From NCBI GenBank assembly GCA_036835125.1, contig DAITMO010000001.1:702216-766215 (forward strand): DNA of 64,000 nt. Direction: 5' to 3'. The notes beneath the pieces were generated by a model. That model searched no databases, was not told the origin of the DNA, and was given only the letters and a program-made list of their open reading frames with translations. The position numbers were made by a program, and so were the translations under genes. Each line of letters opens with the position of its first letter. Positions within the stretch are counted from its first letter, which is position 1. This document shows positions 2,838 through 48,300 of the stretch, one piece after another. This DNA is from Patescibacteria group bacterium. GTDB lineage: Bacteria; Patescibacteriota; Microgenomatia; UBA8517.

Positions 2838-2838
2838 A

Positions 2839-26499: not shown

Positions 26500-26506
26500 A
26501 ATAGCT

Positions 26507-27262
26507 ATGTCAAAAAGAGCCTCAAAAATACTTGCTTCTTCACTTCCCCCTTTAATTACCATTTCTTTAATGGCTCTATTTTTTTTCTCTTTTTATACTC
26601 ACACACATGCCCAAGCAACAATTGAGTCTGATAACTTCAAAATTCAAATGCCAAATTTTAATAGTGGAGCAGGAATTCCATCATCAAATAATTACAAATT
26701 GAATACTACGATAGGACAAACCGCTCCTGGTCTTTTTTCATCAAATGGATACTTAGTTAGATCAGGCTTTCAATACATAAACTCAATAATTCCCTTCTCA
26801 TTTTCCATAAGTAACTTCTTAATTAATTTTGGAATACTCACCCCAGGCACACCATCTACTGTCACAAGCACTCTCACTGTTTCTTCAGGTGGAGCAGGAG
26901 GATACAAAGTAACAGCAAGAGAATCTGATTACCTAAAATCAACAGAAAGCTCAATTCCAGACGCAACTTGTGATGATGGCTTTTGTACACAGTCCTCTGC
27001 CACACCCTGGACGCTTGATACAGCCTATGGTTTTGGCTACAACATGCAGGGAGACGACGTCCCTGCTGATTTCACGGACTCAACATACTACCGTCACTTT
27101 GCAAATCAAGCACAATCCCAAGCAGATCAAATTGTTATGTCAAGTGCTGTTGTGGGAAGAGGAAGAGTTTCCACAATTACATATAAAATAAATATCTCAG
27201 GAATCCAAGCAGCAGGACAATATCAAAATAATATACTTTTTACAGCAATACCTAGTTTCTGA
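26507..27262 (+). CDS. Secreted surface protein, possibly WxL-like
   Basis: The ORF track's start at 26291 overlaps the upstream gene; ATG at 26507 gives a 252-aa protein with signal peptide MSKRASKILASSLPPLITISLMALFFFSF...AQA. It contains PWTLD (WxL-like motif) and its C-terminus ...AGQYQNNILFTAIPSF is paralogous to that of the 28320 gene. Confidence 0.45.
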   Translation: MSKRASKILASSLPPLITISLMALFFFSFYTHTHAQATIESDNFKIQMPNFNSGAGIPSSNNYKLNTTIGQTAPGLFSSNGYLVRSGFQYINSIIPFSFSISNFLINFGILTPGTPSTVTSTLTVSSGGAGGYKVTARESDYLKSTESSIPDATCDDGFCTQSSATPWTLDTAYGFGYNMQGDDVPADFTDSTYYRHFANQAQSQADQIVMSSAVVGRGRVSTITYKINISGIQAAGQYQNNILFTAIPSF

Positions 27263-27290
27263 TAATAGAATCAAAAAAACATAAACAAAA

Positions 27291-28265: not shown

Positions 28266-28319
28266 CAGTGTTTTTCACAAGTTTGATAATGGTTTTAAGC
28301 CGGTTTTTTTACTGGTGAT

Positions 28320-29771: not shown

Positions 29772-29812
29772 AAGTCAAAGCATAAAAAATAATTTAATAT
29801 AAAAAACTGCCC

Positions 29813-30904: not shown

Positions 30905-30992
30905 ACTTGATTAGGAAGTCCCAAGAACATACAATTTTCTTAATGTATTTTTTATTGAAAAAAATACAAAAAAGTAAATTACATTAAAACGT

Positions 30993-31991
30993 ATGTCACA
31001 TAAAAAAAATACAAAGATACTCTTCTTATTAATTACTGCACTGGGTGTATTTATACTCTATCTTGTAACCTCACTAAATCAATTTAGAAGCCACTCTTTG
31101 GTGGAAGGCGAATCAACTATTGTATCTGATGATATAACTGTTTCAGCGACCATTGGAACAACTGCAAAAATGATTGTTGAGGGATATGCTCCGTCCTCTT
31201 CAAAAGTAATATTAACTGGTGAAGGAATCTTTGAAGAAAGAAGTGCAGAAGTCAGTGGATGGTTTTCATTTGATAATATTCATAAAACAGGAAGTACAGA
31301 TGAGTATCCTGAGCTTTGTCTCATCGCCTACTTAGGAAATTTATCTACTCAACCAACATGTCTTCCTTCTCTTCCCGGAGGAAATAATAGCTATAATATT
31401 GGCCCAGTAATTCTTTCCCCCATAATTTCAATTGAACAAAATGTATTTCTACTCGGAACCCAAGTAGCCCTAAATGGAACAACAATTCCCAACACTCCTG
31501 TAAACATATATTTTGCAGAAAATAGTAGCGCTCTTGCCTTAGTACAAAAAGCTCTTGCATATAATATTCCTGCATATCAAGTAGAGTCAGATAGTAAAGG
31601 AGACTTCCAGCTAAACTTGCCTTCCAATACCATTGCCAAATGGAAAGTATATGCAGCAACTACCTATCTAGATTCATCCTCTCCCAAGAGTAATACCTTA
31701 AATTTCACTGTCCAAAATAATATTAGTTACTATCTTAAAAAGGTCTATGAAACAATAGTAAAAACAACAACCATTATTACCTCTGTTGTTACCGCTAAAA
31801 CAGATGAAGAAGTTCGTCAAGAAAATACAGAAAGATTAACAAATATTCCTATTGAAAAAATTAATATACTTAGATCTAAAATGCCATATTTTGTTATGGT
31901 TTTAGAAGGACTAATACTAGTTCTTTTAATAGTCTTTATAGTCATAAGAAAGAAGAAAAAAAGAAAGAAAAAGGATGTTAATCAAAAGTAA
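30993..31991 (+). CDS. Surface protein with N-terminal signal anchor and C-terminal TM plus poly-Lys tail
   Basis: 332 aa; C-terminus MPYFVMVLEGLILVLLIVFIVIRKKKKRKKKDVNQK; A8 tract in codons 3-6. Confidence 0.45.
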   Translation: MSHKKNTKILFLLITALGVFILYLVTSLNQFRSHSLVEGESTIVSDDITVSATIGTTAKMIVEGYAPSSSKVILTGEGIFEERSAEVSGWFSFDNIHKTGSTDEYPELCLIAYLGNLSTQPTCLPSLPGGNNSYNIGPVILSPIISIEQNVFLLGTQVALNGTTIPNTPVNIYFAENSSALALVQKALAYNIPAYQVESDSKGDFQLNLPSNTIAKWKVYAATTYLDSSSPKSNTLNFTVQNNISYYLKKVYETIVKTTTIITSVVTAKTDEEVRQENTERLTNIPIEKINILRSKMPYFVMVLEGLILVLLIVFIVIRKKKKRKKKDVNQK

Positions 31992-32658
31992 CGGTTACTT
32001 TTTGCGATAAAGATGATCCTCCAACCCCTGCTCCTATTTCATACCTACCGTCTGTTCCTGCAGCAAGATCAAATATGGCTCTACCCATTGAATCTGTTGT
32101 TGCCTGAACCGAAGTCACAGCCAGTAAATCTACTCCCGATAAACTAACAACCTTCCCTGAAACACCAGCTCCAGTGCCATCTAAAATGAATACCGTAACT
32201 CTAATTTTTTCTACATTACCAGTAGCTGCACTCAAAGGAGACGCAAACATATATGAGTTTTCAATTGCAACAGAAGTAGGTGCACTTGTAGGAGTAGCTG
32301 TACTTACTGGAATAGCAATTGTAGAAGAAGTTGTACTAGTTTCAGATGTTGTAGCACTTGTTGTTGCAACTTCAGGAGTTGAGGTCGGTAAAACTGACAC
32401 TAGAGGCTTAGGCGATGATATATTACCCAATTCTCCCGGTAACAATTCCGAAGCAAAATTAAAAAAAGATGTTCTTGTTCCAAGTAAGTAAATTGAAAGA
32501 ACAAGAAATCCTGATAAAAGTAATAGTAGAATAACAGATAATAGTATCGAACGCTTCTTTGGCTTTTCTTCCTTCATACTTGATTGGCCACTACTCACAA
32601 TGTTATATTCGGTAAAAGGATCCACTGGCATATAAGTATAAATTGGCACATTTAGCAC
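31978..32658 (-). CDS. Membrane-anchored Thr/Ser-rich protein with C-terminal Ig-like/carboxypeptidase-regulatory-like beta domain
   Basis: 226 aa; N-terminal TM, TS-rich linker, C-terminal beta-rich domain (VTVFILDGTGAGVSGKVVSLSG...); convergent, 14-bp overlap with upstream gene. Confidence 0.4.
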   Translation of the reverse strand: MLNVPIYTYMPVDPFTEYNIVSSGQSSMKEEKPKKRSILLSVILLLLLSGFLVLSIYLLGTRTSFFNFASELLPGELGNISSPKPLVSVLPTSTPEVATTSATTSETSTTSSTIAIPVSTATPTSAPTSVAIENSYMFASPLSAATGNVEKIRVTVFILDGTGAGVSGKVVSLSGVDLLAVTSVQATTDSMGRAIFDLAAGTDGRYEIGAGVGGSSLSQKVTVTFD

Positions 32659-33102
32659 AAAAAATCAACTTCCTATATACATCAAAAACGAAGTGCCGAA
32701 AGTTCGGTATAAAACAACTCCTAAAATATCTAGCAGATAAGAAGTCTGGTTGCCAAAAAATAGCCTCATAGTAAATTTACCTCACATATAAAACAGCCGA
32801 TCATTTTGATATATTTAATATGATCTATAGTTAATTGATAATTTAGATACATGCTTGTTCTCCGTAACATTATTAACATAGAAATAATTACCGCAATTTA
32901 CCGCATAAAAATAATCGAGGCTAAATTTTTGATCTAAAATATCCAAAAATAGGTCTTATGGGTTACTAATATTTCTATGAAAATGAGTGAAACAAGCGTA
33001 AATAATATGCGGTAAATAAATTACAGGTGCTGTGAAAGAGTCTCAAACTTATTGACTGTCATGTATCAATAATTGATTTACACACTTTATATAAAAGGCT
33101 AT

Positions 33103-33140
33103 TGACAGGCTATCTTCCCTTTATAATAATGTATAATATA
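33103..33140 (+). promoter_or_regulatory. Candidate sigma-70-type promoter for the giant gene
   Basis: TTGACA at 33103-33108 with AT-rich -10-like hexamers (TATAAT/AATAAT) 14-24 nt downstream, about 35-60 nt before the ATG at 33172. Confidence 0.3.
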
Positions 33141-33171
33141 TATAATCCGTATAATCTAGCCTCAATTCAAA

Positions 33172-36100
33172 ATGTTTACTACTGCCGATAAAACCATCAA
33201 AAAATTTATAGAAAATCTTATTCTTCAAGGTAAGAGTAAAGTGTCAATAAAAAACTACAAGTCAGATATTGGTCACTTTTTAGCTTGGATTACACTAAAG
33301 CTTAAAACTCTTGGTACCTACATTGAAGAGGCTTCTGAGATTACCCCTTTTGTAAGCGGTGACATTTTTAACGAATACAAAAACTACATGGTTGATAACA
33401 AGGTAAAAATTAAGACAGCCAATAGACGTCTTTCAACACTACGTAATTTCTCCCGATTCCTCCACTCTGAGGGTTTAACAGATTTTGATTTTATGCAAGG
33501 AATTCAGAATCTTGGAATTGGTGAAGGTAAAACTGTGCAGAAAATAGCCACAGACATTATCGGTAATTTCAGAGATTCCTTAATTACTCAAAAAGTTTCC
33601 CCCAACACCATCAAAAACTATGCTTCCGATATACGAAGTTTTATAGATTGGGCAGGGAAAAAGTCTATTGCCAAAATTGGATCAAACCATATAAAAACCT
33701 ATCGCGAAGAAGTATTAAAAAGCTCTACAGCCTCAACTTTTGACAGAAAAGTATCTTCTCTTAAAAAGTTTTTTGATTGGGCAAGAATAGAAGGACATAC
33801 AGACGGAAATCCAATTGAGGATTTTTTAAAGGAGGAGGCTAAAACGATTCAAGTAAAACTTGGTAAGATTGAAAAAGAAAGAAAAGCAATTAGCCAATCA
33901 TATAATTCCTTTCAGGCACGTATTATCGCAAAACTTGCGGTAAAACCAAGATTACAGAAGTTCTTCTATCACCTTTTCTACACCCGTCCCGAATGGTACA
34001 AAAAATATCACACACTTCCAATTGCAAGCTACTTTAATTATGGAATATTAATCCTTCTCATGTCCGCACTTGGCTTTGGAGTGTATAATCAATTTTTCAA
34101 AGCTACATCAGATTCTCTTGCTTACCCAACAACACTAACTAAAGCGGGTAGATATCTATCTTTTCAAGGAAGACTCACAAGTAAACTTGGAAATCCAATC
34201 ACAACTGCAACAAATTTAGATTTTAAGCTGTATGATGCCTCTACATCTGGTTCCCTTCTCTGGGATTCAAACACTTGTTCTATAACTCCTGACACTGATG
34301 GAATATTTTCTACACTTCTCGGAGATTCTTGTGGAGATGAAATAGGAAGTGATGTTTTTAGTGAAAATGCAGAAGTATGGCTTGGTGTGACGGTTGGATT
34401 AGACGCTGAAGCAACTCCTAGAGTACAAATTGCAACTGTAGCCTATGCCCTAAACTCAGAGACACTTCAAGGATATCCTGCAAGTGAATCAGCAACAGCC
34501 AATACAGTTCCTGTAATGAATAGTAGCGGACAACTAGTACTTGCATACTCTTCCCCCAAAATTCAATCTACAAGCGGAACTTTTGCAATTGAAGGGCAAG
34601 CAACAACAATTTCAACAGCAAACACTTCAAATGGATCAATAACTATCAATCCAGATGGAACTGGAACACTTAACTTAACTTTTGAGGGTGCTGCTCCAGG
34701 TGGTTCTGCTAACGGTTTTGTAAACGCCACAAATGCAAACTTAACAAGTGGAGCTCTTTACTATGGTGAAGTTGCAAGTGATGCTTCAGGCTATAACCTC
34801 ATACAACTTGCAAGCGGTTCAACACCCACTGATAAATTTACAATAAGCTCGGCAGGAAACTTGGTAGCAGCAGGAACAATAAATGGACTAGGAGTAAGCT
34901 CAGGAACAATAAGTAGTGGAACCTGGAATGGAACAGCAATTGGAACTCAGTATGGTGGTACAGGACAAAACTGGAGTGCAGTTTCTCAAGGCTCACTTCC
35001 CTATTTTAATGGAGCCGGAACAATGGCAACTCTTGACCCTGCCACTTCAGGATATGTTCTAACAACCCAAGGAGCAGGAGCAAATCCAACATGGACGGAC
35101 CCTACTACCCTTGGAACAAATTATTGGCAACTTGCAAATCATGTTCTTACTCCAGCCAATGCTTTAGATTATGATCTTGCAGTCGGTGGAAACTCAACAG
35201 CCAGTGCTAAATTCCAGGTGTTTGCAGGAAGCGGGAACATATTAACATCCGGAACAGCTTCAATTTCAGGAAATTTGACACTTGGAAACGGAAGTGCGCT
35301 TCAATCAGCATACGGACCACTCACACTAAATTATAAATCAGGAGCAGATGCCTATACTGCAGGATTAACTCTCACAGATTCTGGATATATAGGAATTGGA
35401 ACTGTAAATCCTGTAGCTAAAGTTTCTATCGTAAGTCCAGGTGATAGTGGCATTAATATGGGTGGCTACTTTGGGTCCGGATATGGAGCTATTTCACTAA
35501 ATAATACAGCTGATTCTACCAATTATAATTTACTATCAGGAAATAGCAGTACTGACAATTCACTTTATCTAAATAGAACTTCGGGAGGGTCAATACACTT
35601 CCGTGAAGCAAATGGAACTTCTCAAATGATAATTGCTTCTGGTGGAAATGTTGGAATAGGAACAGTGTCTCCCACTGCCAAGTTGGATGTAAATGGAAAT
35701 CTAAATATTAGTGGATATGCAACAGCTTCAGCTTCTTTGGCACTTGGTAATACTATAGCAGCAGAAGGACCAGGACACCTTAATATGAGTGGAAATTTAA
35801 CTGCTCTTGGAACTATAAACGGTCTTTCAGTTTCTTCTGGGACAATCTCTTCTGGTACTTGGAATGGAACAGCAATTGGAACTCAGTATGGTGGTACAGG
35901 GGCAGATAACTCAGCTGTTGCACAGTATTCTATCCCCTATTATTCAGCTATTGGAACTTTAGGAGGAGCAGTTTCTCCAGGAACTGCAGGTTATGTTCTT
36001 TCAACAAATGGTGCAGGAGGAGCTCCAACCTGGATCGAAATGAGTGCAGTAAGTGGAGACAACTATTGGCAACTAAACAACAAAATATTATCTCCCGCTA

Positions 36101-39100
36101 ATTCTACATTTGATTTGGTAATTGGAGGAACAGCCACAGGAAGTGCATTTCAAGTCTTTGGACAGGAACTTGCAGCAGGAAATGTGCAGAAGATTACAAG
36201 TTCGGGAGTTACGACTGGTGATGTACTCTCACTAAACTCTACTGCTCTAACAACAGGATCTCTTCTTTACCTTGCTAACAATACAGCAAATAATGCCTAT
36301 TTAATAAAAGCCCAAGCAGGATCCTCTCTTACCGATAGAATGACATTGGACTCTTCCGGATATTTAAAGGTATATGATACAAGTGGATCCAAATATGTCC
36401 AAATAAGACATGATGGAACAAACGGACAAATATCTGCAAGCAGTGGTAATCTTGAACTTGGAAGTGGAGCAGGAAATATGGTTATTGGAGATTCTTCAAA
36501 TGCTGTGAATATTCATTTTGGATATACAGCAGCTCCTGTAGCAATTGAGGGTGAAGCCGGAACTGTAATTAACTTCACACAAGCAGGAGATATAACTCCA
36601 GCAGCTGATGCAACCTATGACTTAGGGGCATCCGGAACCGCCTGGGCAAATATATATGGAACTTCTGTATATCAGGGAGCCTATCAGGTTTGTGATGTTT
36701 CAGGAAATTGCTTGGGAACTGCCGGAGGAAGTAAATGGAAAAGCAATTATGGGGCCATTTCCCCATTCACCGATGATTTAGATGTTCTTATTGGTTCTTC
36801 CGCTACCACTTCTGCAAAATTTGCGTTCATAAATGTGGGAGAAGGTTTACCAACTGCGTCAATTTCTGGAACAACAGCTAACGTAAACACATTTTTAACT
36901 GGAGAGGGAAATCTTGGAGTAACAAATATGGCACACTTGACTCTGGGTGGAGCAACAACAGGACAAGTTGATGTAAGTAATGATTTAAATTTGGCTGACA
37001 GTAAAGGATTAAAAATCAATAACAATTCCATACTTACTTCAACTGCACTCGGATCAACAGTGGTGGGGTCTTCCTTAACCAGTGTTGGAGCACTAACTGC
37101 AGGAAGCATAGGAGGTAGTTTTGGAAGTATCAATGTTGGAAACACAATCACAGGAACAACAATAAACGGAACAACTGGTATTAATACAGGAGCCTCTGCC
37201 GGAACACAAAGAATTGATGCTTCTGGAAACCTAACAAATATTGGTACTACACAATTCCATGGAGTTACTTACACATGGCCGGCGGCAGACGCGGCAAATC
37301 CTGGTTATGTTCTAGCATCCAATGGATCAGGAGGTCTCTCTTGGGAAGCCCCTTCAGGGGGTGGCGGATCCTGGACAATAGGTTCAAACGGTGTAATTTA
37401 TCCAAATAACTTCACGGCAGATGTGGTAATTGGAGCAACAGCAACAACCAGTGCAAAATTTGCGTTTATGAATGTTTTAACAGGAACACCAACTGCTTCA
37501 ATTTCGGGATCAACCGCAAATGTCGCTACATTTGTTGATGGAAACGGAAACATATCAACAACCAACAGACAAGACCTTGTCATAGGAAACTCCACAGCCT
37601 ATGACACAACAGGAAATATTCTCCTAAATCCAAATGGAACAGGAAGAGTCGGAATTGGTACAACTTCTCCAACATACACCCTTGATGTAGTTGGTAATAT
37701 AGGACTTGATCAATATTTATATCACAATGATGACACTAATACTTATCTAAACTTCGAGGCAGATAGGTTACGAGGTTATATTGGAGGCGAATATTTACTT
37801 GATCTTTATGAAGGTACTCAAGATTATGTCAAGTTGGGTGACAATGGAGATGTTGATATAAATTTAAACAACATGCTTTTTGTTGAAGGAAGCTCTGGTA
37901 AGGTTGGAATTGGAACAATAACTCCTACTAATAGACTTTCAATTGTCGCTACATCTGCAAACTCCACAGGTATGGCAGCACTACTAATTGATCAATATGA
38001 AGACCAGGATATTTTTACAGCTTCAGCTTCAGGTCAAACAAAAATGAAACTTGCTAATGACGGTACTCTTTCTCTTTACAACGCAACTTCCTCTATAACA
38101 AACACTGCAGGTGACATAACGCTTGACGCTGCAAGTGATTTTATATCTTTCTCTGGAGATAGCCTTGGAAACATTTTGGATTTATCTATTACAGGAGTAC
38201 TAAATGCTGGAACTTCAGCTGGTGGAGTATATAATTCTTTGGCTGGAGCATCAGACTCCCCTGCCTCTACCGCAATTGCTTCAGGAAACGATCTTTTTGT
38301 TGGAGGAGATATTGAAATAAAAGGAGGTCTATATCTCACAGGACACAATATTTTTAATGTTGTAAGTGGAGTTTCAACTGGTACTATCACTTTTGCTGCA
38401 GATCCAACTCTAGTAAATAGTTATAACGCTTTGAGCTATGGTTCTTGGCTTGTAAACAACAGTGTTAACGATGGAATTGCCTCTCTAATGGTAAATCAAG
38501 CTAAAGCCGGAGATGTTTTTACAGCAAGTGTATCAGGTACAACCAAATTCACAATTCACAATGACGGAAGTTTATATCTTGCTGGTTCAGCATCTGCTCC
38601 AACAGCAAATACCACAGCAGGAACCATATATTTTGATACAGACACTGTGACAGGTTCTGGCACAACAGGAAGTTTATTTATTAGAGGAGAAGATGACGCT
38701 TGGCATAGACTTGCAATGGACATGACTTCATATGCCTCAAGTAGTGCAAACATTGCAAATGGAAGTTATGTTGAAGTTGCTCATAATCAAGATACAAATG
38801 ATATTTCAATTACAGGCTGGTTCTATGACACGATATCTTCTACATGGAAAAATATTTCAGAATTTACTCACAGCATAATTCAAAACTTGCAAAACCAGTT
38901 TGATGAAGAAGGAAATAGCAAAATTAGAACAACGACAAAACTTACAAATATTGAGCTATCTCAATCTATCAATACTGGTACAGGAAGTGATGGAGCAATC
39001 ACAGTTTCAGGAAGTGTTAGTATCAACGATACAGATTTAATTTCTGATAGATCATGTAGTGATGGTGGAGATGCTGTAAATTATTCAATAACAACATTAA

Positions 39101-42100
39101 CACCAACCACTGCTACACTTTCCACTACTCCATCTGCAGGTTGTTTGTCTCCTGGAGATGAAGTGCTTATCATTAACCTTCAAGGAACTAGTACTGCAAC
39201 GACCAATGTTGGAAAGTACGAAACTTTAAGAATTAGCAGTATTTCTACAGATACAATCACTTTTACAACTGCAAAAACTAATTTCTATGGAGACAATGCA
39301 ACTGATGATACAAATATCGGAACAGCCTCTGGTAATCAAAGAGTGATGTTGCAAAGAGTACCCAATTACACAAACGTAACTGTAAATTCATCAATCAATT
39401 TCTATCCAACAGCATGGAATGGAACAAAAGGTGGAGTAATGTTTTTCAGAGCCACAGGTACTGTATCTGTTTCGGGAACGATCCATGCAAATTCTATGGG
39501 TTATAGAGGGGGTGGAACAGCAACAACAGGCGGTAATGGTGGTGAATCATTTTGTAATTTAGATGCTGGAGGAGATGGTGGTTATACTTCTGCTGGTACT
39601 GCAGGCATTTGTGGTGGTGGAGGTGGAGGTGGAAGTCCTGGATCAACTGCAGGAGGAGCAGGTAGCACAAATTATGGTGGTGCAGGTGGGGGAGGTGGAG
39701 GACATACAGGCGCTGGTGGAACCGGTTGGGGTGGTGGTGGTGGAGCTGGAGCTGGATATGGAACAGCAGGAAGCTTCGGATATGGAAGAAGTAATGGTAC
39801 TAGTGGGAGTACAAATGCCAGTGGAAATGGTGGAACAGGAGCAAGCAATGGTGGATCAGGTGGAGGTGGAGGGGGAACATATGTAAATAGTTCAAAACTT
39901 CTCCTTGGTTCTGGTGGTGGATCTGGAGGAAAAGGTGGATACGGTACAGGGTATGGTGGAGCTGGTGGTCAAGGGGGTGGTGTGGTATATATTGCTTCAT
40001 CAAGTATTTCGATTTCTGGTAGTGTGAATGCTGGTGGTCAAAACGGAACCAATGGTGCTAACAGTACTGGAAGTGGTGGAGGTGGAGGTGGAGGTTCTGG
40101 GGGTTCTGTTTACATATTAGCAAACACTGCCTCACTTGGCACCAATCTTGTTTCATCTAGTGGAGGAAGTGGTGGTGCTGGGGGTGTGCAAGCAGAGGCG
40201 GGTTTTGCGGGTGGTGCCGGAGGTTATGGTGTTTCCTATATTTATTACACAACCTCATATACTGGTTCTGCAAATTCACCAACTCCAACATATACAGTTC
40301 AGCCATATTATCCATATGGTATTTATCACTCTGCTCCAATTGCTACAACCAATGCGGTGAGTCTTGATAAAATTAGATGGGAAGCAAGTCCCTCTGCATA
40401 TGGGAAAATTGAATTCCAAACAAGAACTGGAAATTCTACAGACCCAACAGATGGAAGCTGGGAAGCTTGGAAACCTGCTGTAGATGGAACTAACTATACT
40501 CTACTTCAATCCGCAGATACTCATACAGATTGGACGGGAACAAATGCTACAGTTTCAGATGGTTCAGTGACTCGAGACATTGACCAATTTGAAGATGAAG
40601 ATGAGGGAACTGCTGGTAACAATACAAAGTTTGTAAACACTACTGCTGCCAGTGGATATGCTGAAGCCACAATCACATCTGCTGATATTTCTTCTTTTGA
40701 TTATCTTACAGCATGGGTTTACGCCACAGCCAGTGGAAATACTGTTAAGTTTGGATTTGGTGAATCTACTGCTACCGAACAGGAAGAAACGATAACAATA
40801 GATGCAACGAGCACCTGGCAAAAAATATATTGGGATCTTTCTGATGTTCCTACCGCCAGTCGTGATGGGGTAACAAAATTAAGATTTACAAACTTGAATA
40901 ATCCGTGGAATACAATTCATATTGACAACATAAAGGCTGAAAAAGCAATGACAACAAGTACTGGAACTAATATAACCAGTACCCCCAATAACTACATTCA
41001 ATATCGTGCAATATTTACTACAACCAACACTAGTTATTATCCCAAGCTTTACAACGTAAACATTAACTATAATGATGGTTATAAAATAATACAAGCTGAT
41101 ACAAACAATGTCAGACTTTACAATTACACAGGCAGTACTCAAAACCTAAGACTTGACGCAGTAGTATTTGGAGCTGATTTGGCTGAGTGGTATACAGTTG
41201 ACGATGGTTCGATAACAAGCGGAGACGTGGTTGCGATTACTGGTCAAATGGATGAGAATGGAGTTCCAATTCTTAGAAAATCCCAAGGTGCAAGAGATCC
41301 AAATCTAATCGGTGTAATCTCAACCAATGCAGGTCAAACCTTGGGTATAAAAGCAGACAATAGACGCCTTCTTGCGCTCGCAGGACGTGTTCCTGTAAAA
41401 ATTGATCCCTCCTCCCCTGCCATAAAAGCTGGTGATGGAATAACCTCTGGTAATACTCCCGGAATGGCAAAGAAAGCAATGTTTGGAGACATGGTTATTG
41501 GGAAAGCTGCTCAAGACTGGAACCCTGGACAAGGAAACACCCTATTTATAATAGTAAGTAGTTCAGGTTCTACCAGTTCATATCTTGCAAGCATTGAGGA
41601 CTTCCAAATCATTAAAAACCTATCAACAGGTGTTTGGGAAGTTACAAGTAAATCTACAGGAGAAGTACTAAAAGCAGCGGGAGCATTCGGAGATATGATC
41701 GCAGCAAATATTAAAGCAGGATCCATAATTGCAAAGAATATTGTCACAGATAGATTTGAGACAGCCATTGCTACAATTCAAGATTTAACAGCCCCCAAGA
41801 TTACAACTAGTCTTATATCCCCCATTCCCAATGAAAAAGATATAACCATTCAAATTGGAAATGCATCAGAATCAGGAAAACTCATTGTACAAAATAGTGA
41901 AGGACAAGAAGTTTCATCAATTGATAGTCAAGGAAATGCAACATTTTCAGGAGAAATTGCAAGTAACAATCTACAAGTTGCAAATGAAGCTACAATTTCC
42001 GGTACACTATATGCAGATGAAATTAAATCCAAGAGTTTAGATGAAATTAAGTCTCTTCTTGCCGAGGTTGAAACTGATCAAAACTTACTAAAAGAAGCAG

Positions 42101-42870
42101 CAAATTGGGACGTTTTAACCTCAACCAATTCAGCTAGTCTTGACACTCTTGCAATAAGCGATCTATTTGTAACAAATCAGATAGCAGCAAACTCTCTTTC
42201 TGTAACAAATTCTTTAGCTCTTGGAATAGACATGATGTTTGATTCATCAATTGACGAAACAACCAATTTACCAGGAAACAGCATCAATACTCTTTCATCC
42301 CCTCTTAAAATTCAATCTCTTGCCATGGCTCCAGTTGAAATTATGGCAGGGATGTTTACGATAGACACAACAGGAAACGTAAGAATAACAGGCAACCTGG
42401 CAGTTGGAGGAGACTTGAATGTGGGAGGAAGGGTTAACTCATCAGGACTCACACTACATAATAATAGTGAGGATTCTTCCCCATCAGATCTTCTTACTTT
42501 ACAGGCAATAGATGGAGTAAGTGTTGCAACAATTGACTCATCAGGAAGTGCCTCATTTAATCAAATCTCAACCAAAGGACTTGTAATTGCAGGTGCAGTT
42601 GAGGCTACAAATTCTGCTCTTGTAAATGGAGTGATAACAACAAATGCAACAGCGGGATCCGGAACAATTCCAGAGGGAATATCCGAAATAACAATCAAAA
42701 ATCCAAATGTGACAGACTACACACTTGTATATGTCACACCAACCTCCTCTACCTACAACTATGTACTATATGTAAAGAGTAAAAAGAATGGAGAGTTTAA
42801 AGTAGGATTCACAAATGGAATACCAATAGATGTGAACTTTAACTGGTGGATTGTAAAAGTGGGACAATAA
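33172..42870 (+). CDS. Giant (3232 aa) membrane-anchored surface protein: two N-terminal tyrosine-recombinase core-binding (SAM-like) domains, one TM, then a huge repeat-rich ectodomain (tail-fibre-like repeats, glycine-rich block)
   Basis: Uninterrupted 9.7 kb ORF; residues about 10-100 and 130-215 match the XerD/phage-integrase N-terminal pattern (S..TIKNY.SDI..F..W and RRLSTLRNFSRFL); TM at about 290-312; repeated GIGTxxPxxKL.V.GN motifs; about 310-aa tandem units; (GGN)n block at nt 39511-40260. Confidence 0.85.
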   Translation: MFTTADKTIKKFIENLILQGKSKVSIKNYKSDIGHFLAWITLKLKTLGTYIEEASEITPFVSGDIFNEYKNYMVDNKVKIKTANRRLSTLRNFSRFLHSEGLTDFDFMQGIQNLGIGEGKTVQKIATDIIGNFRDSLITQKVSPNTIKNYASDIRSFIDWAGKKSIAKIGSNHIKTYREEVLKSSTASTFDRKVSSLKKFFDWARIEGHTDGNPIEDFLKEEAKTIQVKLGKIEKERKAISQSYNSFQARIIAKLAVKPRLQKFFYHLFYTRPEWYKKYHTLPIASYFNYGILILLMSALGFGVYNQFFKATSDSLAYPTTLTKAGRYLSFQGRLTSKLGNPITTATNLDFKLYDASTSGSLLWDSNTCSITPDTDGIFSTLLGDSCGDEIGSDVFSENAEVWLGVTVGLDAEATPRVQIATVAYALNSETLQGYPASESATANTVPVMNSSGQLVLAYSSPKIQSTSGTFAIEGQATTISTANTSNGSITINPDGTGTLNLTFEGAAPGGSANGFVNATNANLTSGALYYGEVASDASGYNLIQLASGSTPTDKFTISSAGNLVAAGTINGLGVSSGTISSGTWNGTAIGTQYGGTGQNWSAVSQGSLPYFNGAGTMATLDPATSGYVLTTQGAGANPTWTDPTTLGTNYWQLANHVLTPANALDYDLAVGGNSTASAKFQVFAGSGNILTSGTASISGNLTLGNGSALQSAYGPLTLNYKSGADAYTAGLTLTDSGYIGIGTVNPVAKVSIVSPGDSGINMGGYFGSGYGAISLNNTADSTNYNLLSGNSSTDNSLYLNRTSGGSIHFREANGTSQMIIASGGNVGIGTVSPTAKLDVNGNLNISGYATASASLALGNTIAAEGPGHLNMSGNLTALGTINGLSVSSGTISSGTWNGTAIGTQYGGTGADNSAVAQYSIPYYSAIGTLGGAVSPGTAGYVLSTNGAGGAPTWIEMSAVSGDNYWQLNNKILSPANSTFDLVIGGTATGSAFQVFGQELAAGNVQKITSSGVTTGDVLSLNSTALTTGSLLYLANNTANNAYLIKAQAGSSLTDRMTLDSSGYLKVYDTSGSKYVQIRHDGTNGQISASSGNLELGSGAGNMVIGDSSNAVNIHFGYTAAPVAIEGEAGTVINFTQAGDITPAADATYDLGASGTAWANIYGTSVYQGAYQVCDVSGNCLGTAGGSKWKSNYGAISPFTDDLDVLIGSSATTSAKFAFINVGEGLPTASISGTTANVNTFLTGEGNLGVTNMAHLTLGGATTGQVDVSNDLNLADSKGLKINNNSILTSTALGSTVVGSSLTSVGALTAGSIGGSFGSINVGNTITGTTINGTTGINTGASAGTQRIDASGNLTNIGTTQFHGVTYTWPAADAANPGYVLASNGSGGLSWEAPSGGGGSWTIGSNGVIYPNNFTADVVIGATATTSAKFAFMNVLTGTPTASISGSTANVATFVDGNGNISTTNRQDLVIGNSTAYDTTGNILLNPNGTGRVGIGTTSPTYTLDVVGNIGLDQYLYHNDDTNTYLNFEADRLRGYIGGEYLLDLYEGTQDYVKLGDNGDVDINLNNMLFVEGSSGKVGIGTITPTNRLSIVATSANSTGMAALLIDQYEDQDIFTASASGQTKMKLANDGTLSLYNATSSITNTAGDITLDAASDFISFSGDSLGNILDLSITGVLNAGTSAGGVYNSLAGASDSPASTAIASGNDLFVGGDIEIKGGLYLTGHNIFNVVSGVSTGTITFAADPTLVNSYNALSYGSWLVNNSVNDGIASLMVNQAKAGDVFTASVSGTTKFTIHNDGSLYLAGSASAPTANTTAGTIYFDTDTVTGSGTTGSLFIRGEDDAWHRLAMDMTSYASSSANIANGSYVEVAHNQDTNDISITGWFYDTISSTWKNISEFTHSIIQNLQNQFDEEGNSKIRTTTKLTNIELSQSINTGTGSDGAITVSGSVSINDTDLISDRSCSDGGDAVNYSITTLTPTTATLSTTPSAGCLSPGDEVLIINLQGTSTATTNVGKYETLRISSISTDTITFTTAKTNFYGDNATDDTNIGTASGNQRVMLQRVPNYTNVTVNSSINFYPTAWNGTKGGVMFFRATGTVSVSGTIHANSMGYRGGGTATTGGNGGESFCNLDAGGDGGYTSAGTAGICGGGGGGGSPGSTAGGAGSTNYGGAGGGGGGHTGAGGTGWGGGGGAGAGYGTAGSFGYGRSNGTSGSTNASGNGGTGASNGGSGGGGGGTYVNSSKLLLGSGGGSGGKGGYGTGYGGAGGQGGGVVYIASSSISISGSVNAGGQNGTNGANSTGSGGGGGGGSGGSVYILANTASLGTNLVSSSGGSGGAGGVQAEAGFAGGAGGYGVSYIYYTTSYTGSANSPTPTYTVQPYYPYGIYHSAPIATTNAVSLDKIRWEASPSAYGKIEFQTRTGNSTDPTDGSWEAWKPAVDGTNYTLLQSADTHTDWTGTNATVSDGSVTRDIDQFEDEDEGTAGNNTKFVNTTAASGYAEATITSADISSFDYLTAWVYATASGNTVKFGFGESTATEQEETITIDATSTWQKIYWDLSDVPTASRDGVTKLRFTNLNNPWNTIHIDNIKAEKAMTTSTGTNITSTPNNYIQYRAIFTTTNTSYYPKLYNVNINYNDGYKIIQADTNNVRLYNYTGSTQNLRLDAVVFGADLAEWYTVDDGSITSGDVVAITGQMDENGVPILRKSQGARDPNLIGVISTNAGQTLGIKADNRRLLALAGRVPVKIDPSSPAIKAGDGITSGNTPGMAKKAMFGDMVIGKAAQDWNPGQGNTLFIIVSSSGSTSSYLASIEDFQIIKNLSTGVWEVTSKSTGEVLKAAGAFGDMIAANIKAGSIIAKNIVTDRFETAIATIQDLTAPKITTSLISPIPNEKDITIQIGNASESGKLIVQNSEGQEVSSIDSQGNATFSGEIASNNLQVANEATISGTLYADEIKSKSLDEIKSLLAEVETDQNLLKEAANWDVLTSTNSASLDTLAISDLFVTNQIAANSLSVTNSLALGIDMMFDSSIDETTNLPGNSINTLSSPLKIQSLAMAPVEIMAGMFTIDTTGNVRITGNLAVGGDLNVGGRVNSSGLTLHNNSEDSSPSDLLTLQAIDGVSVATIDSSGSASFNQISTKGLVIAGAVEATNSALVNGVITTNATAGSGTIPEGISEITIKNPNVTDYTLVYVTPTSSTYNYVLYVKSKKNGEFKVGFTNGIPIDVNFNWWIVKVGQ
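34873..36750 (+). repeat. Tandem duplication of an about 310-aa (936-nt) unit inside the giant gene
   Basis: GTINGL[GS]VSSGTISSGTWNGTAIGTQYGGTG... recurs at residues about 567 and 879; identical 40-nt stretch ggaatggaacagcaattggaactcagtatggtggtacagg at 34925-34964 and 35861-35900. Confidence 0.7.
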
Positions 42871-42887
42871 TATAAAAGATATCTCTT

Positions 42888-43676
42888 ATGGAAGAAAAAA
42901 ACAAAACCAACAAAAAAAATATATTAATTCTTTCTTTACTAGCAGTTTTGATAATTGCAGGTATTTTTGTGCTCATTACTCTTCTTCCCAAAAATAAGGA
43001 AAAAAATGTATATCTAGTTGCTAACACCAACAAAACTGAATACTTAGTAGGTGAAACAGTAAAAATAGAAATGGCAAAAGTAGATAAAGATGGAAATGCA
43101 GATTGTGATGCAAATTTGAAATTAACAATAAATGGAATAAAAAAGAAAGATATTATTAAATCTTCTGCTTGTAAGTTGGGTATCAACATAATTCCTGACT
43201 ATTTATTTAGCTTCAAACCTGACAAAACAGGAACTTTTAAGATTAAATTAAAAGATCTTGATACTAAAGTTACTACAACGAGATATTTTGATGTAGTTAA
43301 TGAAAAGAGTCTTGATATTACAAGAAAAATGGATTTGAGAATAAATCTAAAAAAAGGAAACACATTTCCTGTAAGAATACATGTAAAAGCAAATAAAGAT
43401 TATTCAGGAGAAATATCAGATCTTGTTCCTAACGGAATAACAATTAAATGGCAGGGAGAAGCAAAAGTAGAGGGAAATAAAATTATCTGGCATGTAAACC
43501 TAAAAGCTGGAGAAACAAAAGATTTTATATATGAATATTCAGTAAATAATCCAATTCCCACCACCTATTCATTTGGAGAAGACAATGAATGGACAGTTAT
43601 AACAACAAACCAAGAACAAAAAATGGAAATAAAAATTCAAGAAATTATAAAAAAACTAAATGAAAAAAATAATTAA
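42888..43676 (+). CDS. Membrane-anchored hypothetical protein (N-terminal TM, Lys-rich ectodomain)
   Basis: 262 aa ORF; TM ILILSLLAVLIIAGIFVLITLL; A7 and A8 tracts in the first 12 codons. Confidence 0.45.
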   Translation: MEEKNKTNKKNILILSLLAVLIIAGIFVLITLLPKNKEKNVYLVANTNKTEYLVGETVKIEMAKVDKDGNADCDANLKLTINGIKKKDIIKSSACKLGINIIPDYLFSFKPDKTGTFKIKLKDLDTKVTTTRYFDVVNEKSLDITRKMDLRINLKKGNTFPVRIHVKANKDYSGEISDLVPNGITIKWQGEAKVEGNKIIWHVNLKAGETKDFIYEYSVNNPIPTTYSFGEDNEWTVITTNQEQKMEIKIQEIIKKLNEKNN

Positions 43677-45303
43677 ACCATTACTAATATTTTTTGCTGT
43701 TGTTGTGTTTTTCACAATAAAAACAAATACTGTTCATGCAGGTAGTTGTAGCTCTCAAACTGATGGAAACTGGAGTTCAGGAAGCACATGGACTGGTACA
43801 TGTGCTGGATCTGGAGGAATACCAACTTCAGGAGACCTTGTTCAAATTACAGAGGGAACAATTGTTACAGTAGACAGTACAGCAGTAGCGTCAAATGTAA
43901 CAATCAATGAAACTGCAACACTTACTTTTGCTGACAATTCAACTCTGGTGATATCAGGTTTTTCCTTTATTGATTACCCAGGATTGATAAATAATGGCAC
44001 TTTCACCTCAGGATCAAATTCAACTGTGGTTGTTAATGATGAAATTGCTATGAATTTAATAGCTGGCGAAATAACCTTTGATAACTTGTTAATAATTGCT
44101 GGTATTACAGTACTATTTTCCCCCATAACAATTAATGGGGATTTAATGATAATAGAAACAGGTTTATTAGTTGATAACGGTAACCAAATAACAGGCAACA
44201 GTACTGGGGAATTAGTCATTACAACAGCAACTTTTGAAGGAGGACTGTTTATAGATTCTGGAATGTTTGCGAATGAATCCGAAACAACTGTTTCACACTT
44301 CCCCACGCTATTTACCAGAGAAAACATATACATTGAGCCTGGAAGTATTATTGGATACGCCTCTGAAAGCACACAGGTAATATCGAGCGTTCCAATTTAT
44401 GGAACTATTTATTTAATGGGGCCAAATAAAACAAATGAAGATGATATCACTCTAACAGGATCATGGGTAATTGACACTGAAAGTGGTGGTGCAGAATTTA
44501 CTGCAGGAGAAGGAACCACCGTATATTTTGCAGGAGGAGATGAAAGTGAACAAGTAATACAAGGAAATAACACATTCTATAATCTAACAGCTACAACAAC
44601 AGATAATTCTACAGGACGAAGTATTTTGTTTGAAGGAGGTTCAACCACCACTGTAACCGGAACTTTTACAATGGAGGGAGAAGCTGGAAAAGTTCTCACT
44701 CTCGGATCAACTGATGAAACAGCATGGACAATTACACCTACATCAACTTCAGTACAATACCTTTCTGTTTCCGATTCCACAAATACTAATGGAACCATAT
44801 GTGCCCCCTATTCAACTGATGGAGGAGGAAATACTGGATGGAGTTTTGAGGAAGGAGCTTGTAATACAACACCAAATACACCAACTCTGGATTTGCCAAG
44901 CAATAGTGCCACCAATCAATCAATCAACCCATCACTTAAAACAACATCAACAGACCCTAATAGTGACTATCTACACTATAAAATCATTCTTTGTGAAGAC
45001 TCAGAAATGTCAGTAAATTGCCAAACATTTGATCAAACCAGCTCTCAAACTGGATGGAGTGGACAAGATGCAGAAAGTGAAACAGCATATGCTTCAGGAA
45101 CACAAGCTGTTTATACACTGCAAACCGAACTCTCTTATTCAAAAATATATTATTGGAAAAGTTATGCAATAGATCCAGGAGGAACAAACGCATGGAGCGA
45201 AACTCAAACTACTCCCTATTCATTTACAACAGGAGCGTCTCAAAATACAGTTTTGAAATATAAAGGAGGGCTTAAGATCTTTGGGAACGTAATCGTGAAA
45301 TAA
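43660..45303 (+). CDS. Secreted beta-helix-like adhesin-type protein with C-terminal FN3-like module shared with the downstream giant protein
   Basis: 547 aa; signal peptide; parallel-beta-helix-like repeats (GDLVQITEGTIVTVDSTAVASNVTI...); C-terminal TPNTPTLDLPSNSATNQ...CQTFDQTSSQTGWSGQD...YYWKSYAIDPGG module. Confidence 0.6.
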   Translation: MKKIIKPLLIFFAVVVFFTIKTNTVHAGSCSSQTDGNWSSGSTWTGTCAGSGGIPTSGDLVQITEGTIVTVDSTAVASNVTINETATLTFADNSTLVISGFSFIDYPGLINNGTFTSGSNSTVVVNDEIAMNLIAGEITFDNLLIIAGITVLFSPITINGDLMIIETGLLVDNGNQITGNSTGELVITTATFEGGLFIDSGMFANESETTVSHFPTLFTRENIYIEPGSIIGYASESTQVISSVPIYGTIYLMGPNKTNEDDITLTGSWVIDTESGGAEFTAGEGTTVYFAGGDESEQVIQGNNTFYNLTATTTDNSTGRSILFEGGSTTTVTGTFTMEGEAGKVLTLGSTDETAWTITPTSTSVQYLSVSDSTNTNGTICAPYSTDGGGNTGWSFEEGACNTTPNTPTLDLPSNSATNQSINPSLKTTSTDPNSDYLHYKIILCEDSEMSVNCQTFDQTSSQTGWSGQDAESETAYASGTQAVYTLQTELSYSKIYYWKSYAIDPGGTNAWSETQTTPYSFTTGASQNTVLKYKGGLKIFGNVIVK

Positions 45304-45305
45304 AT

Positions 45306-48300
45306 ATGTCAAGAATTGATTTAGGAAACCATATTAGTACATACTTAAAACTAGTTATAAAAATGACTACATCAAAACTGTCCAAAATAGTCAGAAAGAT
45401 AAATTACTATATCAAATATTTTGTGGTTAATAGCCACATATTATCTAGAAAAGCAAAAAGAAAACTAAATCACATCCCCCCACTTAGTAAACTTCCACAA
45501 ACAATTAAAGAGGAATTAATTGTTTTTTTTAAAAAGTTCACTATCTTTGTTAAAAAGTTACCTAAATTTATAAGAAACTTTCCACCCTTAGTTAAAAGGA
45601 AAGTTCCAACATATATAAAATTAATAAAAAAACATAAAAATGGTATTGCAATCACAATAACAGCAATCCCTGTAGCAGTTATCTGGGGACTACTATTATA
45701 TAAATGGATTACCACTCCCCAGCCCGCAATAGTAACTAATTCAAAAAATAGTGACTATCATTTTCAAGGAAAATCAAAACTCTATAAATTTAGTATTGGG
45801 GATACTAAAACAAATGAACCAAAAGTTGAATTCTCTCTTTCCAAAGAAGGAAATAAAAAAATTATCTTCTACCCTGCAAGCGGTAACACAGGAAGGGATA
45901 AACCGGAAGAAAAAGGAAACAAAATTACTTTTAAAGATGTGTATGGAAATACTGACATAGTCTATACACCAATCAAAAACGGAATCAAAGAGGAAATAAT
46001 AGTTAAAAAACCAAATGAATATCATGTCTATCCATTTTTCTTAGAATTAGAAGGGGTAAACATAAATCCAACATTCAACATTTCAAATGGAGTCTTCTAT
46101 GACAGTGATGGCAACTATCTATTTAACTTTGAAAAACCATTTGCGATAGATGCAAAAGGAAACAGAACTGACAATGTTGGAATATCCATAAAAACAGATT
46201 CAAACAGCGGCAAACTAGTAGCCCTTCTAACAGTAGATAAAAACTGGATTAGTGACCCTGCCCGCACCTACCCTATTACAATTGATCCAACAATAGTACA
46301 TGACACCAATGCAGAACTTGATACCGGACAATTAAACAGAATTCTTTCAAAAACAGCTCCCACATCCCCCGCAACTGGAGGAACCATCACATATAAAGAT
46401 GGCTATACAATTCATACTTTTACGTCATCTGGAACTTTTACACCCACAACATCGATGAATGTAGAAATATTAGTTGTGGGTGGTGGTGGAGGTGGAAATG
46501 ATGGATCTGGTGGAGGTGGTGGTGGAGGTGGTGGTGGAGTTGTATATCAACCTTTATATGCTGTTACTGCACAAGAATACACCGTTACGGTTGGAGATGG
46601 TGGTGCCAGAAATACAAGTGGAAATAATTCTGTTTTTGACACTATTACTGCAGTTGGAGGAGGTAAAGGAGGAGGATATGCCGCAGCGGGTTCAGCTGGT
46701 GGTTCTGGAGGAGGATCAGGACGTGATACAACCTCAGCTGCCGGAGGAAGTGGAACAGCTGGCCAAGGATATAACGGAGGTAGAGCTACAGCAGCAAGTT
46801 ATGGTTCAGCTGGTGGTGGAGGTGGTGCAGGACAAGTTGGTTATAATGGAGGAACAGATTCAGGTACTCTTTCTGGAACCTACTCCAGGGGTGGAGATGG
46901 TATTGGATATTCAATTTCAGGAACTATAACATATTATGGTGGTGGAGGTGGGGGTTCTTGGCATTCAGGAACAGTCATGTCTTCAGGTGGTCTAGGAGGA
47001 GGAGGTAAAGGAGGAGGATATCTTAATTCGGGTGGATACAATGGTACTGCGGGTACTGCAAATACTGGTGGTGGAGGTGGGGCTGCAGATTCTAGAAGTG
47101 GAACGGCAGGAGCTGGTGGTTCCGGTATTATTATTATTCGCTATCCAACCTTCCCCACTCTTGAAACATATTATCAAGAACTTTCAACAGATCCATATAC
47201 TGTTGGTCTTTGGCATATGAATGAAACTTCTGGCACCACAACCGTATCTGATTCATCAGGAAATTCTAACACAGGAACGTCTGTATCTAGTACTAATGTA
47301 ACTACTGGAGTTTTAGGAAATTCCAGAAGTTTTAATGGGAGTAGCGATTCTATATCCACTTCTCTAAATGGTCTTCCTTCAAGCACTAATACTGTTACAG
47401 TTGAATTTTGGGCATATATGGCTTCTGGACTTACTAATTACCAAGCCATACAAGCAAGTGCCGATGATGTAGCCAATAGATTTAATATTCACTTAAATTG
47501 GGGAGGAACTACTTATTGGGATTTTGGTGCATATGATGGTGGTGGAAGACTTACTGCAACATGTGATAGTAGCTTATTAAACAAATGGGTGCATTGGGCA
47601 TTTGTTTCTGAAGGAGGTGTTGGTCAAAAAATATATATTAATGGAGTGTTAGTTGCTAGTGACAACACTACATCAACTTTTACTAAAGGAGCAAAAACAC
47701 TATATATCGGTAGGGATACAACAACGAATTTCTTTAAAGGAATGATTGATGAATTTAAAATTAGTAATAATGCTCGTACTCCAGAAGAAATAAAGCTCAA
47801 CGCCTCCCGTCGTCCCTATTCTACCTATACATCCGATGTAATTGATCTAACAAATGTTGCCTCATGGAATTCTTTATACTGGAATGGTCTTGGTTTCACA
47901 ACGGCAGATGGAGAAACTGCAACTGCTTCAGCAACAAGCTCCCTAGTAGCCCAATGGAATTTTAATGAAACTTCTGGAACAACAGCAGCTTCAGGAGGAA
48001 CTTGTGGTACCTCTTGTAATGGAACACTAACAAGCTTTGCCTCTACAGGTTCCCAAGATGCAGCAGCAGGAACAGGCTGGACTTCTAACAATAAACGTTG
48101 GGGTGCAGGAGCTTTAATGTTTGATGGAAGTAACGACTATATGAGTGTATCAAGCTCAGGAATTATTGATCCAACCTCTGAATACACAATAGAATCATGG
48201 ATCAAACCCACATCTACTGGTCCTTATACAATTTATGGACAAGGAAATACAGGAAACAATACAGTTATGCTTGTGTTGAATGTTTATAACGGCAACTTAT

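Follow-up and report, generated by a model that had tools for sequence, protein, structure and literature searches.

The window, i.e., the whole stretch of 64,000 nucleotides (64 kb) of a Patescibacteria group bacterium that was analysed (contig DAITMO010000001.1, positions 702,216 to 766,215), harbors a giant gene at positions 33172..42870 of the + strand, encoding a type-II (N-in, predicted) membrane-anchored giant surface protein of 3232 amino acids (aa). The open reading frame (ORF) begins with an ATG and contains zero internal stops. The same 3232-aa protein, identical in sequence, is encoded on 5 contigs of public assemblies, so that its uninterrupted reading frame cannot be put down to the assembly of the window; a sixth record (P0035) is identical over 2142 aa and then ends or diverges inside a Gly-rich tract. 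The original prediction, made from the letters of this DNA, had assigned to the protein two core-binding (CB) domains of tyrosine recombinases with no catalytic domain, one transmembrane (TM) helix and a giant ectodomain, and this architecture was confirmed by Pfam, by an AlphaFold2 model and by hydropathy. The gene thus encodes a bitopic membrane protein made up of a basic N-terminal part of 283 aa, one TM helix and a giant ectodomain, arranged across the membrane in a predicted topology. The supposed affiliation to the candidate phyla radiation (CPR) was also correct, since the best relatives are found in metagenome-assembled genomes of Candidatus Woesebacteria, Shapirobacteria, Levyibacteriota and Roizmanbacteria.

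The N-terminal module consists of two CB domains in tandem. The first (CB1, aa 5-109; 33184..33498, +) is a four-helix SAM-like domain with an extended loop between helix 2 and helix 3, and the second (CB2) occupies aa 126-216 (33547..33819, +); both were delimited by Pfam, self-comparison, AlphaFold2 and Foldseek, and the second one by NCBIfam as well. They are followed by a helical linker, predicted to be cytoplasmic (aa 217-283; 33820..34020, +; alignment and AlphaFold2), whose C-terminal end is the conserved juxtamembrane motif YTRPEWYKKYH. Within aa 1-220, the Pfam family Phage_int_SAM_1 (PF02899) is matched by two stretches (E=1.6e-23, 83 bits versus a cut-off of 22.3) and Phage_int_SAM_4 (PF13495) gives E=2.6e-17, in agreement with the two tandem domains that had been expected. 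The NCBIfam models of XerD, XerC and XerA are matched only at model positions ~5-100 of 290-300 (75 bits versus cut-offs of 279-335), and the Phage_integrase catalytic domain (PF00589), with its R-H-R-Y active site, has no match anywhere in the 3232 aa, even at E<=1, so that its absence, already noticed from the sequence, was borne out. Since the catalytic domain is absent, recombination chemistry is impossible and the protein is not a tyrosine recombinase. CB1 and CB2 share 29% identity (E=1.4e-5 in the self-comparison) and, as judged from this sequence similarity, are homologous duplicates of each other.

The structural data point in the same direction. The AlphaFold2 model of aa 1-330 (mean predicted local distance difference test, pLDDT, 85.9) contains two four-helix bundles, the geometry between the two domains not being fixed (predicted template-modelling score, pTM, 0.47). 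The top matches of this model retrieved by Foldseek in the PDB are all CB domains of tyrosine recombinases, namely lambda Int (1z19 and 2oxo), XerD (1a0p), XerA (5hxy) and 3nrw, with a root-mean-square deviation of ~2 A over ~90 columns and a TM-score <=0.79 on isolated CB domains; the resemblance to the XerD CB domain anticipated by the original prediction is thus found in the fold as well, at ~2 A from both 1a0p and lambda Int. When the PDB sequences were searched with the single sequence of aa 1-220 nothing was found; a profile search starting from the family reached 2key, 3nrw, XerA and XerD. The motifs typical of recombinases are kept in helix 2 ('KNYxSD..F..W') and in helix 4 ('T.NRRLS.LR.F'), can be aligned across the family with XerD-type CB sequences, and include an invariant arginine, R85. 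The module is strongly basic (isoelectric point, pI, 9.4-9.8). No other CB-domain gene and no Xer recombinase were found in the 64-kb window.

As a separate observation, among the PDB sequences the family profile best matches the N-terminus of chain 14 of 9i5v, a 400-aa protein of Porphyromonas gingivalis. This chain was deposited as the ribosome-associated inhibitor RaiA, and the model on the ribosome covers only 34 of its residues (PMC12123416). A recombinase CB domain is what its first ~100 aa look like, which may represent either another CB domain outside conventional recombinases or a naming problem.

The single TM helix spans aa 284-306 (34021..34089, +) and coincides with the hydropathy maximum of the protein; aa 284-302 are the sole strongly hydrophobic segment, modelled by AlphaFold2 as a helix at aa 284-310. 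The one helix that had been foreseen at about aa 290-312 is therefore real, even though its position is slightly more N-terminal. The 283 aa preceding it have a pI of 9.8, with 49 Lys and Arg residues versus 30 Asp and Glu, and contain no signal peptide, while the 2926 aa on its C-terminal side are acidic (pI 4.35), poor in Lys and Arg and rich in Gly, Ser, Thr, Asn and Ala. A basic N-terminal part joined to an acidic, Lys/Arg-poor C-terminal part fits an N-in/C-out topology, and the CB module is accordingly predicted to be cytoplasmic. Just outside the predicted membrane boundary lies the domain that defines the family (aa 313-450; 34108..34521, +; LAYPT...LSFQGRL...), recognized by conservation and by AlphaFold2, which models it as an Ig-like beta-sandwich with pLDDT >=90 for aa ~328-410. 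It is the best-conserved stretch across 150 representatives of the family (see below). Foldseek searches with this domain retrieved generic Ig-like sandwiches only, with no specific structural relative or functional lead.

The rest of the ectodomain is far less uniform. Orthologues can be aligned at aa ~166-1000 and ~2805-3232 only, and the ~1800 aa in the middle form a variable mosaic (aa ~1000-2800; 36169..41571, +) with internal repeats and a Gly-rich tract, as seen by self-comparison, composition and orthologue alignment. The Gly-rich low-complexity tract (aa ~2100-2400; 39469-40371, +) contains 56-63 Gly per 200 aa and is probably a hotspot for assembly breaks, P0035 being the record that ends or diverges there. 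The conserved C-terminal module (aa 2805-3232; 41584..42867, +; end ...NYVLYVKSK..G.F.VGF...DV.FNWW) shares 41-55% identity with the C-termini of P0036, P0038, P0039, P0040, P0053 and P0060. Pfam searches on nine overlapping 450-aa pieces of the ectodomain gave no credible domain and no Ig, cadherin or RTX repeat family; PHROG matches are weak and local, extending over ~130 aa (phrog_18345, E=6.4e-8; phrog_9942, E=2.1e-5; tail fibre or unknown function). At the C-terminus (...FNWWIVKVGQ) there is no LPXTG motif, no hydrophobic tail and no signal of the type I secretion system (T1SS). From these features it is reasonable to consider the ectodomain a putative cell-surface fibre or adhesin.

An exhaustive HMMER search was performed with aa 1-450 against 1.84 billion cluster representatives (clusters at 50% identity); 1977 of them reached E<1e-10, and 513 reached E<1e-30. 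Giants prevail among the best 150 (median length 2079 aa, longest protein 6346 aa), and the stretch that they have in common is the TM helix plus the next ~140 aa (LAYPT...LSFQGRL...). For 149 representatives, the juxtamembrane domain was located in each protein and the region N-terminal of it was searched with CB profiles: CB domains precede the homologous TM helix and juxtamembrane domain in 146 of them. Two CB domains are present in 63 proteins, one in 44 and three in 1; 38 start with the second half of a CB domain, and the remaining 3 have none. The N-terminal fusion that the original prediction suggested looking for in other CPR genomes is hence found in nearly all the best representatives, and the protein of the window possesses all the family elements, i.e., the CB domain(s), the Y.RP.WY..YH motif, the TM helix, the Ig-like LAYPT...LSFQGRL domain and the long ectodomain. 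According to titles and names, the family occurs in Candidatus Woesebacteria, Shapirobacteria, Roizmanbacteria, Levyibacteriota and other Microgenomates; a word-index protein search with the TM helix and the juxtamembrane domain found short fragments only, and was of use only for taxon names. These proteins therefore constitute a large family of Microgenomates (CPR) in which 0.5-3 CB domains stand before the same TM helix and Ig-like domain. In the databases the relatives are labelled 'hypothetical protein', 'site-specific integrase' or 'site-specific recombinase XerD', and the latter two labels are misleading, since the catalytic domain is absent.

Two genes share the module in the closest relatives, which are Woesebacteria- and Shapirobacteria-like: aa 1-165 correspond there to a separate soluble protein of 177-188 aa (ORF1), which is followed by the giant one (ORF2). 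The homologues of aa 1-320 are for the most part small (176-201 aa) and align to aa 1-165; the ~25 independent ORF1 clusters (176-201 aa) all end just past '..IKNYxSDxRxFLxW', the helix-2 motif of CB2, and the closest homologues of the remainder start at aa ~167 ('MEFRKITSDHIKKYR...'). In structural terms, ORF1 comprises CB1 plus helices 1-2 of CB2, and ORF2 opens with helices 3-4 of CB2. By means of tblastn and a junction script, the same break was located in eleven of the related loci (L001, L002, L003, L004, L005, L007, L010, L013, L014, L017 and L018). Both half-domains of CB2 stay conserved, with 24-60% identity, and the simplest explanation, reasoning from the modelled fold, is that CB2 would be assembled from two chains, docking the soluble ORF1 protein on the tail of the giant. 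The corresponding point in the window is the fusion junction at aa 162-170 (33655..33681, +), which junction comparison and AlphaFold2 assign to the CB2 loop that connects helix 2 (aa 144-161) to helix 3 (aa 171-184). A neighbour-joining tree of the TM-proximal domain places the window protein within a clade of split forms, and the comparison with the L004 DNA reveals that 16 nt are missing in the window, including the ATG of ORF2 and the stop of ORF1; the single gene of the window is thus the outcome of a secondary in-frame re-fusion. Fused forms with two CB domains also exist in other branches (L006, L008, L015, L016, L019 and P0040-42). The original prediction had taken into account the possibility that the N-terminus belongs to a different gene: this is indeed the case in the closest relatives, where aa 1-165 are a separate protein, but not in the window, where the 16-nt deletion has fused the two.

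The junction of the split loci deserves some attention, since it might be read as a site of programmed frameshifting or read-through, in which case the relatives would make one polypeptide, the fused form would be universal and no split domain would exist. The start of ORF2 generally lies 0-17 nt from the stop of ORF1. In most split loci ORF1 and ORF2 overlap by 4-17 nt and ORF2, placed in the +1 frame, overlaps the ORF1 stop; in L003 the junction reads CTT TAG, like the shift site of prfB, and an SD-like (Shine-Dalgarno-like) AAAGGAG lies upstream. Yet the frame relation varies between loci, ORF2 being in the -1 frame relative to ORF1 in L010, in the same frame in L002, with TAA and three bases between the two, and beyond a gap of ~47 nt in L017; moreover, a start codon is present at the head of ORF2 in every split locus. 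In the Woesebacteria-like group, the ORF1 tail 'KGELPNG*' encodes a conserved AAAGGAG, followed by nine bases and then by the ORF2 ATG. A distance of 9 nt from the ATG is an initiation spacing, while that of 14 nt from the codon before the stop is wrong for a prfB-type stimulation. The varying frames and this spacing speak against programmed recoding, which was rejected as a general explanation of the junction, and it is very improbable that the relatives produce one polypeptide in this way. The spacing of AAAGGAG fits instead an independent, coupled initiation of ORF2, as far as can be read from the sequence. An SD-like motif was found within 20 nt of the start in only 3 of the 33 genes of the window, so that its occurrence at the junction of the relatives is conspicuous; the organism of the window seems to initiate translation largely without SD pairing.

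The intergenic region upstream of the giant gene (513 bp; 32660-33171) is conserved in blocks across the window and L001-L005, L002 included, and blocks of this kind were noted in the upstream regions of L007-L018 as well. It contains a tandem direct repeat, TTACCGCAATTTACCGCA (CCGCA-N5-CCGCA, period 10-11 bp; 32887..32905, +), identified by motif count and alignment and considered a candidate operator. The CCGCA-N5-CCGCA motif occurs once in the 64-kb window, versus 0.01 expected, and 11 of the 19 related loci have a single copy each, without exception on the + strand and at a distance of 270-400 nt upstream of ORF1, including loci of the Shapirobacteria type, whose proteins are only 24-30% identical. 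About 90 nt after the tandem repeat, inverted copies, GCGTAAATAATATGCGGTAAAT (32996..33017, +), were detected by repeat search and are conserved in the window and in L001-L005; the right arm of a perfect 12-bp inverted repeat, ATTTACCGCATA / TATGCGGTAAAT, whose arms are 98 nt apart, falls within the same positions. Further downstream, a promoter scan disclosed a promoter-like region (33102..33156, +) with TTGACA, 17 nt and AATAAT (33102-33130; 11/12 matches), behind which further TATAAT boxes reach as far as the start codon; six loci have kept these boxes together with the block AAAAGGCTATTGACAGGC, and TTGACAG is conserved in more distant loci as well. In a metagenome scan for TACCGCAWTTYNCCGCA, 119 of the 120 stretches among the matches listed are chance occurrences in unrelated, mostly GC-rich DNA, and the other one, L045, is a locus of the family with the motif 282 nt upstream of ORF1. 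On the basis of its conservation and position, the CCGCA element is read as a candidate protein-binding operator.

Two other explanations of these repeats were considered and discarded. The inverted repeats do not look like an RNA stem, because the loci of the Shapirobacteria type keep the motif as direct copies and not as compensating pairs; a search of Rfam with 32400-33400 gave no RNA family match. Nor is it supported that they delimit an invertible promoter (inverton), because the orientation is the same in all the seven loci compared and the conserved promoter is outside the repeat-flanked segment. The intergenic region also contains the complementary blocks GAGGCTAAAT (32917-32926) and TAGCCTC (33157-33163), plus a TGTGAAA block. 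Three or four TATAAT boxes extend up to the ATG, and the giant gene has no Shine-Dalgarno sequence; it may have a very short leader.

The comparison with known systems helps to delimit what the N-terminal tail could do. With the CB domains of tyrosine recombinases (XerD, XerC, XerA and lambda Int) the module shares the four-helix fold and the motifs of helices 2 and 4; unlike them, the window protein lacks the catalytic domain, has the CB domain duplicated in tandem and joined through a TM helix to a giant ectodomain, and has relatives in which a CB domain is split over two polypeptides. In its layout, the protein resembles ToxR, CadC and TcpP, i.e., an N-terminal cytoplasmic domain of a nucleic-acid-binding type, one TM helix and an extracytoplasmic C-terminus, in the predicted topology. 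Direct repeats that precede the regulated promoters are known binding sites of ToxR-type proteins, and the giant gene, too, has a candidate direct-repeat element upstream. However, the DNA-binding domain of ToxR, CadC and TcpP is an OmpR-type winged helix, whereas CB-type four-helix bundles are found here, and their small sensor domain contrasts with an outside part of ~2900 aa, fibre-like in appearance; given the different DNA-binding fold, the window protein is not a member of the ToxR family. The split relatives would recall also membrane anti-sigma factors of the RsgI-SigI type, in that a short cytoplasmic segment would hold a soluble partner encoded by a coupled adjacent gene; this is an analogy, in which there is no relation of sequence or fold, and the docking would occur by completing one domain from two chains rather than through an anti-sigma domain. 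As for the outside part, giant adhesins (Ebh, RTX proteins of the LapA/SiiE type, Bap) and phage tail fibres offer a likeness in size, acidic low-complexity composition, internal repeats and a mosaic middle with conserved ends; the matches to tail-fibre PHROGs are weak and local. In contrast to giant adhesins, the window protein has no Sec signal peptide, LPXTG motif, T1SS signal or Pfam Ig, cadherin or RTX repeats, and is held by an N-terminal signal-anchor placed behind a folded cytoplasmic domain of 283 aa.

In the open-access full-text literature searched, nothing was found that describes a fusion of CB domains to a membrane or surface protein, whether in CPR or in other organisms. Known domains thus appear here in a combination for which we found no description in that literature, accompanied by an unusual natural split-domain form. 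The architecture had been put forward as one not recognized from characterised proteins: no characterised protein or paper describing it was indeed found, but it is by no means singular, belonging to a very large family.

From the whole of these data we infer, with a probability of roughly 0.4, that the CB tail could be a membrane-tethered, ToxR-like, non-catalytic DNA-binding device acting on its own surface-protein locus. The CB module would stay in the cytoplasm and would work without recombination, as a DNA-binding or partner-docking tail, the most plausible target being the CCGCA-N5-CCGCA / TGCGG element, which is conserved and precedes the conserved promoter of the gene itself; the surface-protein locus would in this way be expressed according to how much fibre the membrane contains, or to its state. 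Where the module is split, CB2 would be completed in trans and the soluble CB protein thereby docked on the tail of the giant, according to a sequestration logic like that of sigma / anti-sigma pairs. The DNA-binding character is suggested because the helix-2 and helix-4 motifs are retained together with R85, the module is basic and an operator-like element lies upstream. Of the roles put forward in the original prediction (membrane-anchored regulator, tether of the nucleoid or of mobile DNA, contact with a host), the conservation of this candidate operator slightly favours the regulator. Several points weigh against such a role. The isolated CB domain of real recombinases binds DNA weakly, and the ~2900-aa ectodomain is far larger than known sensor domains, so that the tail may serve assembly and not signalling. 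The topology is predicted from composition only. As for the element, it is tied to the giant protein and its CB module by position alone, and another regulator could bind it; its tandem direct repeats differ from the inverted arrangement of recombinase core sites; and the fused relatives of the Levyibacteria type have no tandem repeat, but a single TTACCGCA ~48 nt before the ATG.

The same tail might no longer bind DNA. The CB domains could be a cytoplasmic protein-protein module for the oligomerisation or clustering of the fibre, or for docking an assembly or secretion factor, which is the main alternative and somewhat less probable than the DNA-binding device; the split forms would then be no more than a helical bundle that two chains can make up together. 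CB domains range freely in number from 0.5 to 3, and three relatives do without any, which a scaffold would tolerate more easily than a protein that binds a specific DNA sequence. Reconstitution in trans, as the split implies, is in itself a function between proteins; CB domains are generally known to provide subunit contacts in recombinase tetramers, and a geometry between domains that is not fixed in the model (pTM 0.47) speaks for this reading too. Against a scaffold stands the fact that the best-conserved motifs of the family are precisely the helix-2 and helix-4 motifs of true recombinases, the invariant R85 included, that the module is so strongly basic, and that a conserved repeat element precedes the gene.

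A more far-reaching idea, with signalling from the surface inwards, appears unlikely. According to it, the family would be a transmembrane coupling device of a kind not recognized before, whose fibre tail holds, or is, a recombinase-derived DNA-binding factor that is released or activated by surface events (host contact, tension or fibre loss) and that would then control the surface-protein locus through the CCGCA operator; in the split versions, two chains would complete one domain and so dock the factor. Even less probable is a structural DNA tether, proposed in the original prediction, by which the nucleoid or incoming/mobile DNA would be anchored at the base of the fibre, for instance where the cell touches a host or takes up DNA, with no control of transcription. 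A basic CB module, predicted to be cytoplasmic, does adjoin the membrane, ComEC is encoded in the same genome region, and CPR cells are so tiny that membrane and nucleoid are close (general knowledge). The link with competence, however, is a loose proximity only, ComEC being ~11 kb away and on the opposite strand; the main DNA-binding part is soluble in the split forms, as one would expect of a factor that can be released rather than of a fixed anchor, and a specific conserved upstream element points to a local rather than a genome-wide target. Finally, the idea that the N-terminus is accidental, having come to a surface-protein gene from a decayed integrase gene or through a faulty assembly join, to which the gene boundary inside the module of the closest relatives could lend some colour, is effectively refuted by the family-wide conservation of CB domains before the same TM helix (146 of 149 divergent representatives), and contradicted also by the 5 contigs with the same protein, by two intact and confidently folded CB domains and by a chromosomal location among housekeeping genes that is syntenic in relatives.

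Whichever role the tail has, the finding is widespread, the gene of the window being one member among hundreds: hundreds of divergent giant surface proteins of Microgenomates have a tail, predicted to be cytoplasmic, of CB domains devoid of a catalytic domain. CPR/Patescibacteria depend on contact with other cells, and most of their large surface proteins are, to our knowledge, unannotated. A practical consequence is that the 'integrase' and 'XerD' labels in public databases inflate the counts of mobile-element genes in these genomes. Besides, a break inside one CB domain has been repeatedly tolerated and conserved, so that a soluble protein and a membrane giant would make up one fold between them. 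Should the tail bind DNA, these proteins would be a new family of DNA-binding proteins tethered to the membrane, offering a handle on the coupling between surface and expression in ultra-small bacteria; should it not, they would clearly exemplify how a domain made for binding DNA can be taken over as a protein scaffold.

The window is an ordinary stretch of chromosome, with genes for LeuRS, ArgRS, MreB, UppS, Rho and ComEC, and the syntenic loci have in common the gene order LeuRS, six secreted or anchored proteins, the divergent Big_1 gene, the small ORF and the giant ORF. The conserved neighbour on the upstream side is the divergent gene of a Big_1 (bacterial Ig-like) membrane protein (31978..32658, -; Pfam), present also in L001, L002 and L020. 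Downstream and on the same strand (42888..52262, +) are the genes of a 262-aa TM protein, of a 547-aa secreted protein and of a second giant protein (2318 aa; 45306-52262, +) with Laminin_G_3 x4, Gly_rich_2 and a Rha78A-like Ig domain. The second giant carries a TM helix and, at its N-terminus, a long and very basic tail (~120 aa), but no CB domain, and shares with the first one two short segments (48% over 50 aa and 32% over 97 aa); a second giant ORF is found downstream in L002 too.

Upstream of the Big_1 gene, at 26291-31991 (+), there is a run of five or six signal-peptide genes without Pfam match, syntenic in L001 and L002. The products of 27291-28265, 29813-30904 and 30993-31991 have a C-terminal TM helix and a Lys/Arg tail, and two other products of the run end in ...Y.N...FTAIPSF and ...Y.NKVKYTATARF. 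Judging from these features, the run looks like a cluster for a cell-surface complex, and it lies beside the giant gene in every relative examined. The ComEC protein with the 'Competence' domain is only 371 aa long (21530-22645, -) and is followed by a 294-aa ORF (20649-21533), so that ComEC may be encoded in two pieces in the window. The ORFs at 25786-26499 and 26291-27262 (+) overlap by 209 nt; the TTG start of the latter is probably wrong, and an internal start nearer the signal peptide is more likely.

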